Source: Dehalococcoidia bacterium (GTDB taxonomy: Bacteria > Chloroflexota > Dehalococcoidia > Lucifugimonadales > GCA-2717565). From it: 64,000 bases of DNA. Location of the stretch: the NCBI GenBank assembly GCA_009692865.1, contig SHYH01000001.1, positions 9,548 through 73,547 on the forward strand, written 5' to 3'. Of this stretch, positions 8,476 to 24,963 are shown one piece after another. The notes under the pieces were generated by a model. That model was given only the letters and a program-made list of their open reading frames with translations, was not told the origin of the DNA and made no database searches. A program made the position numbers and the translations under genes. How positions within the stretch are numbered: position 1 is the first letter of the stretch; every line of letters starts with the position of its first letter.

Positions 8476-8619
8476 TTGACGCTGCGGTTTCACCATCCCC
8501 CTGACCCCCTTCCTTCCAGGAAGGGGGATGTTTTAGATATGGGGGTGTCCCCCATATCCTCGTCATCCCGATGCCGCATCGGGATGAACTCCTCTTCTTC
8601 AGGACTTTTGGGGCAAAGC
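8476..8619 (+). repeat. Family-B palindromic repeat (A-related core), copy B1
   Basis: TTGACGCTGCGGTTTCACCATCCCCC + CCCCCTTCCTTCCAGGAAGGGGG + GATATGGGGGTGTCCCCCATATC + perfect hairpin CATCCCGATGccgCATCGGGATG. Near-identical framework at 24820..24963. Confidence 0.7.
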
Positions 8620-8757
8620 CCACACATCCTTCAAAAGGCAGAACACCATTATAGCCAAGACAGGCCCAAAGGTCTTCCCCAAGGACGGGCCAGGTCGAGA
8701 AAACAAAGGGGAGGCGCGAGCATCGCGCCTCCCCTGGCACTGATGACTACCCTTCAT

Positions 8758-9179
8758 CTAGCGAGCCTCCCACCGGACCATCGTGACCTCCGGCATCACG
8801 TCGTCGAAGACAGCCTTGACGTGCATCCCCACTTTGAGCTTGGAGTTGTCTGTGCCCACCACGTTGCCCACGATCCGGATGTTGGGCGCCTCCTCCTGGG
8901 TCACCTGGACAATGTTGTAGGGCACCAGGGGCAGAAAGACAGAAGTTCCCGGCTGGTGCACCACGATGAAGGTGTAGATGCTCCCCCGGCCACTGAGCTT
9001 CACCCACTCGAACTGCTCGCTGTAGCAGTTGGGGCAGGTCAACTGGGGTGGGGGCGGAACTGCTTGCACTCGGCACACCGCTGAATCACCAGCTCATGTC
9101 GCTTGGTGACGTCCCAAAAAGGCTTGTCGTCTTCTTCCGGTCGTGGGACGGGGGGCTTGGCCTGTGGCTGAGTTGTCAT
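8758..9179 (-). pseudogene. DUF35 OB-fold/zinc-ribbon acyl-CoA-associated protein, frameshifted
   Basis: ATG at 9179 reads MTTQPQAKPP...VIQRCAECKQFRPHPS*. The next frame continues PPPPQLTCPNCYSEQFEWVKLSG... The shift is in the C/G run at ~9045-9057. Total length of 422 nt is not divisible by 3. Confidence 0.7.
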
Positions 9180-9183
9180 GTCG

Positions 9184-10391
9184 CTACCCTCTCTTCAAAA
9201 TGACGCCAGACACGGCTGCTATGCTGAAGTGGAGGCCGATTTCAGCGTTCCGGACCTGGCGGCAGATCTTCCGGTCGTAGGTGTGAATCCCCTCCTGCCA
9301 CTGGGGGCACAGGTCCTCGGCATCGCCCCTTAGCTGCATCACCGTTTCGGTGACGTTGTTGATCCCGTGGGCATACCCTTCGTTCATCAAACCGCCCTGG
9401 GTAAACATGGGCAACTCGCCATCGAAGTCGATGCGCCCACCCTTCATGAAGTCCGGGAACTCCCCCTGCCCGCAGAACCCGAAGTCCTCCGCACTCCGCA
9501 TCGGTGTGTCGGTGAAGTTGTCGTAGGGATTGAAGACATCAATGTCCTTCAGCTCAATGCCTGCCTGTCCCAGGAGGACGCCCGCCAGATAAGCGCCACC
9601 GGTGTCATCGATGTTGTCCTGCCTGGAGCCGGGGCTGCCATGCCGGAAGAGATAAGGACCGGCCGCTTCCTCAGGTCCCGGGCCCGCTCGACCGTGGTGA
9701 CGATGTAGGCGCAGGCCACGTCGGTCTCCTGGCAGCAGTCCAGAAGGTGATAGGGCTCGGAGACGTAACGAGAGTTCTGGTGGTCCTCAAGGGTAATGGG
9801 CGCGCGCATCACGGCCCGAGGGTTGTTGACGGCGTGGCTACGGCTGTTGACGGCCATCCTGCCAAAGTCCTCACTGGTGATGCCGTACCTTGCCATGTAC
9901 CGCCGGGCGGCAAAGCCGAAGCTGTGGGGAGGCCCGCCCAGGCCGTAGGTGACGCTCCACTTCCCGGGTCCGCCCATGCTGGCCGGCGGCGGCGGGCGCC
10001 CCTGGCCACCCATCCGCACTCCGGTCCGACCGTTCATGGCCCGGTAGCAGAGGAAGTACTTGACGTTCCCATGTATGACCGATTCCGCCGCCACGACCGC
10101 CGTGATGGCGGCGTGGCTCCCTCCCCCCTCACCCATAACGGCGTAGTTGACTCTCTGGGCCCCCAGGTTCGCCAGCACCTGGCCGGGCCCTACGCTGTCT
10201 GCCATACCGTAGACAAAGCCCCCATCCAGGTCCTTGGGATCGATGCCGGCGTCCCGGCACGCGTCCACGGCCGCATTCACCGCCAGGGTCATGACGCTCA
10301 CCCCGGAGTTCCTGTTGAAGACGGGCGTCTGCCTCCGGCTGTACCCGACGCCAACGATAGCCGCCTTATCCCGGAAATCAGAATCAGCCAT
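9184..10391 (-). pseudogene. SCP-x/nonspecific lipid-transfer-type thiolase-like protein, frameshifted
   Basis: N-terminal frame MADSDFRDKAAIVGVGYS... (AAGGAGA Shine-Dalgarno) stops at 9549. The C-terminal part ...HGSPGSRQDNIDDTGGAYLAGVLLGQAGIELKDIDVFNPYDNFT...GVILKRG continues in another frame, with the shift between ~9600 and 9680. Confidence 0.7.
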
Positions 10392-22381: not shown

Positions 22382-23833
22382 TCACCCACCAATCCCATAC
22401 TGCTTCCACTTCCCGTCCACCAGGACCTTCACCTCCGGGCTCATGGCGATCTCGGAAGGCCAGGGGCGCGTCCGCCCCTCGGCAGGGCCCTTCTCCGTGG
22501 CGTCAATGCCCATCTTACTCCCGAACCTGGGCGTCGGCGCGGCGTAATCCAGGTCGTCGAGGGGGCCCGTCGTGAACAGGATGTCCTGGGCAGGGCTGAT
22601 GTTGCCGGCCACTCGCCAGGCCACCTCGGAAAGGTCGTGGACGTTCACACCGTGGTCCACCACGACGATGGTCTTGGCCAGCATGAGAAGCCCCATGCCC
22701 CAAAGGGCGTGCATCACCTTCTGGGCGTGACCGGGGTACTCCTTCCTGATGGAGACGATGACCAGGTTGTGGAAGATGCCCTCGGCCGGCATGTTGATGT
22801 CCGCCACCTCGGGCAGCACCATCTGGAGGAAGGGCAGCAGAAGGCGCTCCGAGGCCTTGCCCATGAAGTAGTCCTCCTGGACCGGACGCCCTACGATGAT
22901 GGTGGGATAGATGGGCTGCCGCCGGTGGGTAATGGCCGTGACGTGGAACACCGCGTACTCCTCCGGCTCGGAGTAGTAGCCGGTGTGGTCGCCGAAAGGC
23001 CCCTCCAGACGCGTCTCTCCGGGGTCCACGTACCCCTCCAGGACGATCTCGGCGTGGGCGGGCACCTCCAGGTCCACCGTCCTGGCCTGGACAACCTCCA
23101 CCGGCTCATCGCGCAGGAAGCCCGCCACCAGTAGCTCGTCCACCCCTGGCGGCAGCGGCGACGAGCCGGTCCAGATGGTCGCAGGGTCGCCGCCCAGGGC
23201 CACGGCCACCTCCATCCGCCCCTGGGCCACCCGGGCGTGGTGGGCGCCCACCTTGTGGGTCTGCCAGTGCATGCCGGTGGTGCGCTTGTCGTAGACCTGC
23301 ATCCGGTAGGTGCCCACGTTGCGCACCCCGGTCTCAGGGTCTCGCGAAATGACCAGGGGAAGGGTGATGAAGCGGCCGCCGTCCAGGGGCCAGCACTTGA
23401 GGATAGGGAACCGGAGGAGGTCCACGGCGTCGCCCTCCAAGACCACCTCCTGGCACGGTGCGCTGCGGACTGTCTTGGGGCGATAGGAGGCCAGCTTCCG
23501 CAGCTCACCCAGGGCGCGGAGTTTGGCGAGCAGGCCAGCAGGCGGTCCCCCCTGGGCCATCTCCAGCAGGTGGCGGACCCGTCCCCCCAGGTCGTCGAGC
23601 CGCTCCACCCCTAGGGCCCAGGCCATGCGTTGCTGAGCCCCGAAGGTGTTGATGAGGACGGGGATGTCGTACCCCTTCACGTTCTCGAAGAGCAGAGCAG
23701 GGCCGCCGCGCTTCACCACCCTGTCGGAGACCTCGGCGATCTCCAGGTCCCAGGTGACGGGCGTGGCAATGCGCCGGAGGTGGCCCTTGCTCTCCAGGAA
23801 GGCGATGAACTCGCGAAGGTCTTTGAATGCCAT
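22382..23833 (-). CDS. ubiD: UbiD-family (prFMN-dependent) decarboxylase
   Basis: 483 aa, MAFKDLREFIAFLESKGHLRRI N-terminus, full-length UbiD-like. Confidence 0.9.
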   Translation of the reverse strand: MAFKDLREFIAFLESKGHLRRIATPVTWDLEIAEVSDRVVKRGGPALLFENVKGYDIPVLINTFGAQQRMAWALGVERLDDLGGRVRHLLEMAQGGPPAGLLAKLRALGELRKLASYRPKTVRSAPCQEVVLEGDAVDLLRFPILKCWPLDGGRFITLPLVISRDPETGVRNVGTYRMQVYDKRTTGMHWQTHKVGAHHARVAQGRMEVAVALGGDPATIWTGSSPLPPGVDELLVAGFLRDEPVEVVQARTVDLEVPAHAEIVLEGYVDPGETRLEGPFGDHTGYYSEPEEYAVFHVTAITHRRQPIYPTIIVGRPVQEDYFMGKASERLLLPFLQMVLPEVADINMPAEGIFHNLVIVSIRKEYPGHAQKVMHALWGMGLLMLAKTIVVVDHGVNVHDLSEVAWRVAGNISPAQDILFTTGPLDDLDYAAPTPRFGSKMGIDATEKGPAEGRTRPWPSEIAMSPEVKVLVDGKWKQYGIGG

Positions 23834-24109
23834 GTGAAGCGGCGCCAGTCAGTGGATTTGTAGAGTAGTGTAAGGAACGCCGCTAGGGGCGTCAATGCGA
23901 GGGGTTGAGGCCTCAGTAAAGGACCGGCCAGAAATTGTGAAGGAATCCCGGACTCGGCATACGCGGGAACCCCACGCCAGATTGCCGCGGGCGGATACAC
24001 CCTCGCAATGACAATTTCCTCACAGCCTCTCAGGGTGACAGATTTGTGAATGTAATTCTGAGCGTAGCGAAGAATCTCTAGTTAGTACGCGACCCGATAC
24101 AACCAAACG

Positions 24110-24793
24110 CTAAGAGCGCAATGAGGCGTTTGCCAGAAGAGTGGAGACCTCTTTCCAGATGACCTCTTCCAGCACCTCGGGAGGCTTGCTGGCGTCCAGG
24201 ACGACAAACCGCTGGGGCTCGGCCTTGGCCAGGGCCAGGTACCCCTGGCGGACGCGGCGGTGAAAGGCCAGGGGCTCCTCCTCGAAGCGCCGTTGCCCCT
24301 CCTGGTCGGCCCTCCCGCTCTGGCGAGTTTCACCCTCCTGGACTAGGGAAAGTTGGGCCTGGCCCAACCGCCGCAGACCCTCGGCAGAATCCAGATCGAG
24401 GAGGAAGGTGCGCGTGGGCTTGAGCCCCTGGGTGATAAAGGCGTTGAGAGTGTTGATAAGCTCCACGGGCAGCCGCCGGCCATACCCCTGGTACGCCACG
24501 GTGGAGTCCAGATACCTGTCGGCCACAATAACGGTCCCGCTGGTCAATTCCGGCTTGATGACCTTCTCCACCAGCTCGGCCCTGGCAGCGGCGAAGAGGG
24601 CCAGCTCCGTGGAAGGGGCCATGCCCTGGTGGCTCTTCAGGAGGTTGCGGAGGGCCCACCCCAGAGGCGTGGAGCCCGGCTCTTGAACGAGAAGCGCCGG
24701 GCAGCCTGCATCCCTGAGCCGCTCCCACAGGCGCTTGGCCTGGGTGCTCTTGCCGCTGCCCTCCCCGCCTTCAAAGGAGATGAAAAGCCCCAT
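24110..24793 (-). CDS. tmk: Thymidylate kinase
   Basis: P-loop FEGGEGSGKST and DRY motif ADRYLDS. Confidence 0.9.
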   Translation of the reverse strand: MGLFISFEGGEGSGKSTQAKRLWERLRDAGCPALLVQEPGSTPLGWALRNLLKSHQGMAPSTELALFAAARAELVEKVIKPELTSGTVIVADRYLDSTVAYQGYGRRLPVELINTLNAFITQGLKPTRTFLLDLDSAEGLRRLGQAQLSLVQEGETRQSGRADQEGQRRFEEEPLAFHRRVRQGYLALAKAEPQRFVVLDASKPPEVLEEVIWKEVSTLLANASLRS

Positions 24794-24819
24794 ATGTTCG
24801 CACCCAACGAAAGGTCAAG

Positions 24820-24963
24820 TTGACTCTCCGGTTTCACCATCCCCCTGGCCCCCTTCCTTCCAGGAAGGGGGAGGTTTTAGATATGGGGGGCACCCCCATA
24901 CCCCCGTCAGAGGGGACTCCGCCCCCTCCGAACTCCTCCTCTCCGGAACTTTTTAGGCAAAGC
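24820..24963 (+). repeat. Family-B palindromic repeat, copy B2
   Basis: TTGACTCTCCGGTTTCACCATCCCCC + CCCCCTTCCTTCCAGGAAGGGGG + GATATGGGGGGCACCCCCATAC. Same framework as 8476..8619. Confidence 0.7.

Follow-up and report, generated by a model that had tools for sequence, protein, structure and literature searches.

A 64-kb stretch of the genome of a Dehalococcoidia bacterium (contig SHYH01000001.1, positions 9,548 to 73,547; here called the window, meaning the whole stretch that was analysed) is dotted with short repeats made of hairpins. An earlier note on this DNA had sorted them into families A, B and C that share a set of hairpins, among them a perfect palindrome of 24-34 nt. The locus raises the question of what these repeats are, how their hairpins are built and how the copies reach and keep their places. 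We propose, with a probability of roughly 0.7, that they form a superfamily of ~150-nt Dehalococcoidia elements resembling MITEs (miniature inverted-repeat transposable elements), that they are built from three triplex modules of the BoxC/PIT type, that A, B and C are mosaics of these modules, and that the copies are moved in trans and selected for one orientation.

Families A, B and C belong to one superfamily

A profile built from six A copies was searched with nhmmer against the window, which has a G+C content of 64.6% and belongs to what we call a 65% G+C genome; the ArgJ encoded in the window is 100% identical to a MAG protein at NCBI. About 18-20 copies or fragments of the superfamily were found in the 64 kb, on both strands, which amounts to approximately one every 3-4 kb. 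Because the A profile also retrieves the B copies (8476-8619 and 24820-24963) and the C copies (31885-32017, 52030-52165 and 53676-53760) with E-values of 1e-9 to 1e-21, A, B and C are homologous sub-families or mosaics of a single superfamily. Chance G+C-rich hairpins are ruled out by the profile E-values and by shuffles. Three inverted copies (4514-4695, 36735-36873 and 47371-47518), which had not been united by the earlier families, were retrieved as well.

The palindrome had been placed at about 12 loci. With a regular expression allowing at most one substitution per arm, its core CCCCTTCC...GGAAGGGG is found at 11 sites (23, 4611, 7524, 8506, 11244, 12747, 22285, 24850, 36821, 47457 and 49043), to which a decayed copy at 20422 and three copies of the compensated variant CCCCCTCTCC...GGAGAGGGGG (31974, 52109 and 53684) are added; a 12th match of the expression, at 60896, lies outside the repeat family and was left out of the count. 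The 34-nt form of the palindrome is real and lies at 49037-49070, 3 nt away from where the earlier note had put it, and the sequences quoted there are all present at, or within 3 nt of, the positions given. Reading both B copies confirmed that they share a core and have swapped the third hairpin, and the C copy at 52030-52165 does carry GGGGGCGAAGCCCCC and TCTGGGGGACACCCCCAGA. Out of two reported solitary hairpins, one is indeed a lone GGGGCCTTCGCCCC (10416-10429), whereas the other (26640-26690) is part of a decayed element running to 26717.

Further loci were found in a set of species-representative genomes with the pattern ACCATCCCCCTNNCCCCCTTCCT. Together with the window, 114 of these loci (designated by L numbers) make up a sample of 0.86 Mb, in which the profile gave 245 non-overlapping matches, copies and fragments included. 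All of the family loci, more than 114 in number, come from metagenome-assembled genomes (MAGs) of Chloroflexota/Dehalococcoidia, obtained from groundwater, Lake Baikal, the Black Sea and soil, and the superfamily is very abundant in this group.

Modules are exchanged between copies, so the description of the repeats as assemblies of exchangeable stem-loops holds. One hairpin-3 variant, TCCCGAyG...CrTCGGGA, is combined with A ends in one copy (49003-49150) and with B ends in another (8476-8619), and it is also present in other genomes (L084, L059 and L065); the right end of one C copy is of the A type. Short additional hairpins (CCCCGATAGATGCGGGG, CCGCCGCAGGCGGA and CCCCGACACGTCGGGG) come and go at several positions within copies, and internally deleted and palindromised copies occur. 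In one MAG (OZ253478.1), core units devoid of terminal inverted repeats form tandem and inverted arrays (L066 300-1640, L078 5400-7360 and L058) with a spacing of ~200-225 bp and with the hairpin-2 variants GAGGG/CCCTC/CTCCC and GGAGG/CCTCC/CCTCC. Such arrays make the comparison with REP/BIME mosaics (repetitive extragenic palindromes and bacterial interspersed mosaic elements), drawn by the earlier note, a fair analogy.

Each hairpin adjoins a potential third strand

The consensus, drawn from 63 full copies of the window and the related loci, is 149 nt long, encodes no protein and contains three G+C-rich hairpins (in parentheses) between terminal inverted repeats: C-TAGCAGGGTGCTGAAAAA-CCCTTTCG-ACCATCCCCC-TGG-(CCCCCTTCC-TGGCCA-GGAAGGGGG)-spacer-(TCTGGGGG-ACA-CCCCCAGA)-CCCCC-GGCA-(AAGGGGC-TTC-GCCCCTCT)-GGA-CTCCCC-TTTTTCAGCAGCCTGCTA-G. 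A copy is assigned to the + strand when its C-rich third tracts are on that strand, and CCCCCTTCCTGGCCAGGAAGGGGGCCAGGGGGATGG denotes a 36-nt DNA with a C-rich complement. Each hairpin is adjoined by a tract that is the mirror of its pyrimidine arm, that is the arm read backwards and not its reverse complement. For the palindrome, which is hairpin 1, this third strand is ACCATCCCCC, a feature not recognised in the earlier note. Opposite ACCATCCCCC-TGG-CCCCCTTCC-loop-GGAAGGGGG, the other strand reads C-rich stem, loop, G-rich stem, 3 nt and G-rich stem; a module on the G-rich strand thus consists of a pyrimidine arm, a loop, a purine arm, about 3 nt and a second purine tract mirroring the purine arm.

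A class II intrastrand triplex motif has a pyrimidine stem, a loop, a purine stem, a loop and a second purine stem on one strand, and the ITxF definition sets stems of 6-15 nt, at most one mismatched triad and loops of 1-6 nt (PMC4666352). In its sequence, the palindrome together with ACCATCCCCC fits this motif exactly, while being a separate sequence family. The window was scanned for ITxF-like motifs, with stems required to measure 8 nt or more, no more than one bad triad tolerated and the first loop allowed to reach 8 nt. This gave 14 motifs, whereas 100 shuffles gave 0.01 on average and never more than 1. The class II block order was found for hairpin 1 in 12-13 window copies, for example as CCCCCTTCCT-tcc-AGGAAGGGGG-cta-GGGGGATGGT, with stems of 8-11 nt, at most one mismatch and a second loop of 1-4 nt; one scan match (11243-11275) has a first loop of 8 nt, which is above the 6-nt ITxF limit.

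The mirror relation was counted over all hairpins with homopyrimidine arms in the 0.86 Mb, a match being an identity of 75% or better. The upstream tract, usually 3 nt away, is a mirror of the arm in 151 strand instances and a direct copy in 4; for non-canonical arms only, the counts are 24 and 3. At least 12 different arm sequences keep the rule, among them, written as third tract/pyrimidine arm, CCCCCATCC/CCTTCCCCC, CCCCCACTC/CTCTCCCCC, CCCTCACCT/TCCTCTCCC, CCCTCATCC/CCTTCTCCC, CCCCCACCT/TCCTCCCCC and CCTCACCCCC/CCCCCTCTCC. The third tract nearly always has one A where the mirror expects a T, which, on the G-rich strand, puts a T opposite an A:T pair, and each position of a module read on that strand corresponds to one of the triads G·G-C, A·A-T and T·A-T. 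In hairpin 2 the arm and its third tract go together 96:1 (GGGGG/CCCCC/CCCC[CT] 73 times, GAGGG/CCCTC/CTCC[CT] 23 times, crossed once), a ratio built on few independent events.

The stems themselves change by paired substitutions (TTCC/GGAA to TCTCC/GGAGA, TCTGGGGG/CCCCCAGA to TATGGGGG/CCCCCATA, GGGGG/CCCCC to GAGGG/CCCTC), and the conserved, co-varying part of the palindrome is its stem plus the neighbouring mirror tract. These comparisons were made by module-wise scans because gaps broke the hairpins when RNAalifold was run on a MAFFT alignment of 113 copies.

Ends, insertion sites and possible mobility

The A copies carry terminal inverted repeats of 19 bp, not noticed in the earlier note, that end in CTAG and match at 18 of 19 consensus positions (CTAGCAGGGTGCTGAAAAA on the left, TTTTTCAGCAGCCTGCTAG on the right). 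At their variable positions, 9 and 12, the left and right ends do not change together. This rules out a closing stem; what is maintained at the two ends is the sequence itself, as with the recognition site of a transposase. The elements have several features of a MITE: at 149 nt they stay within the 200-300 bp limit for MITEs, and they are non-coding and multi-copy, with 19-bp terminal inverted repeats in A copies only. The A-type element is best described as a MITE-like repeat built from triplex-type motifs; both kinds are already known, and this form of them is new.

At seven ends in the window, the element's terminal TAG or TAA doubles as the stop codon of the adjacent gene (gene ends at 128, 7628, 26714, 31887, 47516, 49148 and 55218). 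Such ends fit insertion at TA or CTAG, sequences that this genome seldom has outside stop codons. We infer that a DDE transposase targeting TA or CTAG would move the copies in trans, and that, with CTAG rare except at TAG/TAA stops, insertions would survive there, the element regenerating the stop codon.

One difference in occupancy was seen at an orthologous site, the spacer between argJ and a GNAT gene. The site is filled in the window and in L116 and empty in L115 (ArgJ 91% identical), where the spacer measures 41 bp and the window holds a 147-nt copy. In L116 (ArgJ 80% identical) the copy lies at the same place, 8 nt past the stop codon, in the same orientation and with the same decayed CTGG end; it is 79% identical to the window copy, compared with 54% for the adjacent spacer and 84% for the argJ coding sequence, and it has a changed hairpin-1 loop and another hairpin in place of hairpin 3. 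Over the 16.5 kb of L116 that are syntenic with the window, one out of four copies is at a position common to both. Copies from other species are 85-95% identical to the window copies, and the single gene match among those loci is 75% identical.

Since just 2 matches were found on viral contigs, phages are no obvious vehicle. Among the window genes, identified by Pfam and all housekeeping, there is no transposase, Y1 transposase or DNA methyltransferase. A search of the window and 114+3 loci, a sample short of whole genomes, turned up no parent insertion sequence bearing these inverted repeats. Pairs of inverted repeats 0.4-4 kb apart were considered as candidate parent transposons and rejected, as what lies between them is ordinary genes, an IS481 element unrelated to the family or, in L052, a hydrolase gene; matches to a left or a right end only turned out to be deletions, nested inserts or an IS481 insertion.

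A recurrent insert was observed in several copies of one MAG (L055 ~2986, L040 ~2374, L051 ~2305 and ~256, L052 4625-4710), where ~70 nt replace the 3' half of hairpin 1. This insert begins with the palindrome GCAGGGCACGCCCTGC and goes on ...ACCCACACTCAACTGTTGCTGTGCTGGTCTGACCATGTTCTACGG, and has the look of a further small mobile palindrome that sits inside the first. A longer one of this sort lies upstream of argJ in L115 (1-90).

Orientation relative to genes

Out of 12 window copies located between co-directional genes, 11 have the G-rich triplex strand as the sense strand, and along the 64 kb the orientation switches repeatedly, each time together with the strand of the local genes. For all loci, copies between co-directional genes have the G-rich strand on the sense side in 45 cases and on the other side in 16, gene calls outside the window being crude. 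The bias points to transcription rather than replication because the orientation flips whenever the gene strand flips; replication is an unlikely cause, as the orientation tracks the local gene strand. Copies are found within operons, as in ubiD-[copy]-ubiA-ubiX-[copy], and are therefore unlikely to be strong terminators.

The bias may reflect a structure of the non-template DNA strand, an effect of G-rich RNA or selection against C-rich, Rho-attracting RNA. Whenever the DNA is single-stranded, during transcription, replication or transposition, a module would fold into a hairpin capped by a triplex of G·G-C, A·A-T and T·A-T triads, and selection would keep the copies whose G-rich strand is the sense (non-template) strand. 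Copies kept in this way might act as structural elements at transcript ends or between cistrons, or might merely be tolerated; function is the least certain step. A more specific proposal is doubtful, namely that the triplex-capped hairpins are elements selected in one orientation whose G-rich non-template strand folds during transcription or stabilises an R-loop, thereby setting transcript ends or insulating genes, with modules that spread and recombine independently of the inverted repeats. If true, it would represent a natural, genome-wide use of intrastrand DNA triplexes in Dehalococcoidia.

At approximately one copy per 3-4 kb, the elements will have consequences for the assembly and binning of Dehalococcoidia MAGs and for gene calling in them; open reading frames run into copies, and copies supply stop codons. 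Mechanically defined open reading frames run through copies at 7628-8740(-), 10602-11306(-) and 36780-37700(+); one of 370 aa swallows the B copy at 8476-8619 (B1), its Pfam AA_kinase match stopping well before. Gene callers are likely to over-extend starts in these genomes.

Insertions at the centre of hairpin 1

In two species-level MAGs, an IS481-family element lies exactly in the hairpin-1 loop of an A-type element (L014 1698-3012 and L008 6542-7857). It encodes a 381-aa transposase (Pfam rve, LZ_Tnp_IS481 and HTH_32) and has the ends TGTATAGACCGGGGACA...TGTCCGGTCCATACA; the two copies are 99% identical, are flanked by a 4-5 bp duplication of the loop and have opposite relative orientations. 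Since the insertion is exact, something recognises the centre of the palindrome. IS1397 and ISKpn1 target the loops of REP sequences.

Alternative explanations

The palindrome could be a protein-binding or methylation site, as the earlier note had suggested from its CCWGG and GGCC sequences. The commonest centre, CCTGGCCAGG, holds two CCWGG and one GGCC, and the IS481-family element inserts exactly there. Yet the centre is the least conserved part of the palindrome: the two variants recognised before become five in the window (TGGCCA, TAGCCA, TTCCA, TGGAA and TCAAA) and 29 distinct loops over all sampled copies, many of them without CCWGG (for example TAGAA, TGATA, TTTGA and TGCA). Because the loop carrying these sites varies, because the stems change by compensated substitutions and because the window has no DNA methyltransferase, methylation or simple protein binding is not supported and we give it hardly any credence. 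Folding into G-quadruplexes instead of triplexes would draw on the paired G-runs of 4-5 nt that lie 3 nt apart, six per copy on the G-rich strand, and G-rich triplex motifs could in principle form quadruplexes (PMC4666352). However, the A and T interruptions are mirrored between the purine tracts and compensated in the pyrimidine arm, which fits triads and not G-tetrads, and the analogous TMECO element of E. coli is a triplex by nuclear magnetic resonance (NMR) (PMC4666352), which makes quadruplexes very improbable. The repeats could also be purely RNA-level elements (terminators, stabilisers of mRNA 3' ends or intercistronic processing signals) with incidental mirror tracts. This would agree with an orientation that tracks local transcription and has no one fixed direction, with copies lying just past stop codons and inside operons such as ubiD-ubiA-ubiX, and with RNA folds of a copy that reach z = -3.2 to -4.8 against shuffles. 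On the other hand, about a quarter of the copies are oppositely oriented, the hairpins are not followed by a T-run, the window as a whole has no Rfam match at gathering score (best sub-threshold E-value 0.23) and the E. coli PIT elements have no terminator activity (PMC4666352). Such a role would also leave unexplained the mirror tract kept in at least 12 arm variants, and we regard it as unlikely.

On a REP/BIME-type reading, it is the hairpins that move or are amplified; a REP-associated tyrosine transposase (RAYT) working on them in single-stranded form would spread them, with the A-type ends as a secondary feature. This would explain the mosaic modules with inserted or swapped hairpins, the tandem and inverted arrays of OZ253478.1 (L066 and L078), the conserved core with differing ends and an insertion sequence that targets the hairpin loop as IS1397 does with REPs. 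Nevertheless, the hairpin feet (TGN/CCA, TCT/AGA and AAA/TCT) lack the GTAG or CGTC tag that REPs, imperfect palindromes of 20-40 nt, carry at one end, the units are of 150 nt with 19-bp inverted repeats ending in CTAG, and no Y1 transposase is present among the window genes, so that we find this explanation quite unlikely.

Several points also weigh against triplex-bearing MITEs that are moved in trans and selected for orientation. B, C and array units keep the core and have no A-type inverted repeats. MITEs usually show the opposite pattern, conserved ends around a variable interior, and the constancy of the core leaves a REP/BIME-like mechanism in play as a competing explanation. Both ends carry CTAG, but the left and right tetramers are uncorrelated (17 identical, 13.5 expected), which gives no signal of target duplication, and the empty site of L115 is too diverged for a duplication to be read. 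Neither the window nor the 0.86 Mb of related loci yielded a transposase that has such inverted repeats. The orientation bias is ~3:1 and not absolute, and outside the window it depends on crude gene calls. As regards the triplex, the folding of these modules stands as a prediction. Hairpins 2 and 3 have triad stems of just 5-6 nt, borderline for class II, and a mirror test with 5-nt arms on these two hairpins gave no discrimination (124 mirror, 93 direct). TMECO showed no protection in dimethyl sulfate footprinting in vivo (PMC4666352). Finally, purine-motif triplexes are reported not to form in RNA (evidence cited in PMC4666352), which makes an RNA-level role of the third tract doubtful.

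Comparison with known bacterial repeats

To our knowledge, intrastrand triplex repeats of bacteria, known since 2000, have neither an accepted function nor a known means of spreading. The closest counterpart is the E. coli TMECO element, which is one and the same as BoxC and as the PIT elements that Hoyne and Maher 2000 described (Holder et al. 2015, PMC4666352). It has the consensus CCCTCNCCC N3-6 GGGNGAGGG N3 GGGNGAGGG, and as a DNA oligonucleotide it forms a triplex by circular dichroism and NMR with a melting temperature of 70-82 C (PMC4666352). TMECO and the elements described here have the same block order (C-rich stem, loop of 3-6 nt, G-rich stem, loop of 3 nt, second G-rich stem), stems of 9-10 nt and a T in the third tract opposite an A:T pair, and both are intergenic, multi-copy, highly conserved and linked to variable genome contexts, as reported for TMECO (PMC4666352). 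The window motif, CCCCCTTCC N5-6 GGAAGGGGG N3 GGGGGATGG, nevertheless departs from the TMECO consensus and belongs to another phylum; Chloroflexi go unmentioned in Holder et al. 2015 (PMC4666352). Here three modules are joined in one 150-nt unit with terminal inverted repeats, the density is ~1 per 3-4 kb as against 23 TMECO per genome in E. coli K-12, and the copies are biased in orientation relative to genes, whereas TMECO is intergenic without strand bias, promoter or terminator activity or association with mobile elements (PMC4666352). Three things absent from the E. coli case are thereby added: inverted repeats and one presence/absence difference that point to transposition, many natural variants keeping the triplex rule, which amount to support of the covariation type for the structure, and a gene-orientation bias that hints at a strand-specific role.

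The Correia elements of Neisseria are likewise non-coding repeats of ~100-160 nt with terminal inverted repeats and a TA-containing target, present in hundreds of copies near genes, co-transcribed with them and accompanied by internally deleted or truncated variants. In contrast to MITEs of this type, the interior of the elements in Dehalococcoidia is conserved above the ends across sub-families and is made of triplex-type modules, no parent insertion sequence was identified and the target duplication is only putative. REP/BIME sequences of enterobacteria and pseudomonads are also built of stem-loop modules that vary in combination and orientation; they occur between genes as well as inside operons, form clusters or arrays and have a hairpin loop targeted by a dedicated insertion sequence. 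They differ from the present elements, which have no GTAG/CGTC tag, are longer composite units with inverted-repeat ends, have a third-strand tract by each hairpin and have no RAYT seen in the window. The BOX elements of Streptococcus pneumoniae are composite intergenic repeats made of boxA, boxB and boxC modules that are exchangeable and vary in number. The composite, exchangeable build is similar, but BOX sequences are unrelated, lack triplex-type mirror tracts and come from another phylum.

Elements in the window and further observations

The elements of the window are listed in Table 1.

Table 1. Copies, fragments and parts of the repeat superfamily in the window
Position	Strand	Feature	Remarks
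1..131	+	A copy, cut by window start	Terminal TTA is the stop of a CbbQ-like gene, 128-1015(-)
4514..4695	-	Copy with extra 5' hairpins	Left inverted repeat replaced
7485..7631	+	Full A copy	Terminal TTA is the stop of argB (7628-8410, -)
8476..8619	+	B1: core ACCATCCCCC plus hairpins 1 and 2	Hairpin 3 replaced (8564-8586); non-A ends
8492-8501		B1, ACCATCCCCC	
8505-8527		B1, CCCCCTTCC-TTCCA-GGAAGGGGG	
8564-8586		B1, CATCCCGATGccgCATCGGGATG	
10416..10429	.	Solitary hairpin of hairpin-3 type	GGGGCCTTCGCCCC
11205..11351	+	Reference full-length A copy, 147 nt	nhmmer E=4.9e-45, model positions 3-149; between the argJ stop codon and a GNAT gene
11205..11222	+	Left terminal inverted repeat of the reference copy	Consensus (C)TAGCAGGGTGCTGAAAAA; CAG replaces TAG in this copy
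11230..11239	+	ACCATCCCCC	Mirror tract (third strand) of hairpin 1
11230-11267	-	Class II motif	ITxF-like scan
11243..11266	.	Hairpin 1, CCCCCTTCC-TGGCCA-GGAAGGGGG	The palindrome of the earlier note
11278..11301	+	Hairpin 2, TCTGGGG-AACAC-CCCCAGA	Positions take in the downstream pyrimidine tract CCCCT
11306..11332	+	Hairpin 3, AAGGGGC-TTC-GCCCCTCT	Positions take in the GGA that follows and a CACCCC tract after it
11333..11351	+	Right terminal inverted repeat	TTCTTCAACAGCCTGCTAG
12707..12856	+	Full A copy	Divergent spacer between argJ and a CNNM gene
20358..20551	+	A copy with two extra inserted segments	Between ubiX and the next gene
22245..22392	+	A copy, right inverted repeat decayed	Between ubiD and ubiA
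24820..24963	+	B2: B1 core	Different third hairpin
26640..26717	-	Decayed copy	Terminal CTAG supplies the stop of gene 26714-27088(-)
31885..32017	-	C-type copy, hairpin 1 CCCCCTCCCC/GGAGAGGGGG, third tract CCTCACTCCC	A-type right end; adjoins the stop codon of an MMPL gene
36735..36873	-	Copy with hairpin-1 loop TCAAA	Variant hairpin 3
47371..47518	-	Full A copy	Terminal TTA is the stop of jag; sole copy between co-directional genes with the C-rich version on the sense strand
49003..49150	+	Full A copy with the 34-nt palindrome (49037-49070)	B1-like hairpin-3 variant; terminal CTA is the stop of gene 49148-50365(-)
50403..50439	+	Left-end fragment	Inverted repeat plus ACCATCCCCC
52030..52165	-	C3: hairpin 1 CCCCTCTCC/GGAGAGGGG	Third tract CCTCGCCCC
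53524..53615	-	A copy, internally deleted	Hairpins 1 and 2 lost
53676..53760	+	C-type copy	CCTCACCCCC-TGA-CCCCCTCTCC-TGCA-GGAGAGGGGG
55183..55226	+	Right-end fragment	Its CTA is the stop of groEL

In L067 (170-300), an A copy has its left half fused, at the centre of hairpin 1, to the reverse complement of that half. The resulting palindromised hairpin is bordered by a C-rich third tract on one flank and by a G-rich third tract on the opposite flank, as in the E. coli 'palindromic TMECO'/BoxC. At 27810-27846 (-) the window has a class II triplex-type motif that is not part of the family, CTCTCGCCC-ctgca-GGGGGAGAG-agtta-GAGTGAGGG, in a place with no confident gene.

The window also holds a second, unrelated palindromic repeat family, GGGGAACCCTTTCT-tgca-AGAAAGGGTTCCCC, at ~1812-1843, 46467-46498 and 58778-58809 (repeat D19: 1750-1874 and 58716-58840). 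This family, too, has inverted repeats as flanks (GGAGAGGTAT...ATACCTCTCC), and it has no mirror tract. Of note, the region 38896-43959 consists of tandem paralogous gene blocks, with three enoyl-CoA hydratase genes and duplicated dehydratase-like genes, whose repeats (D3, D5, D7, D9 and D11) are 72-94% identical and offset by ~1.03-1.1 kb.

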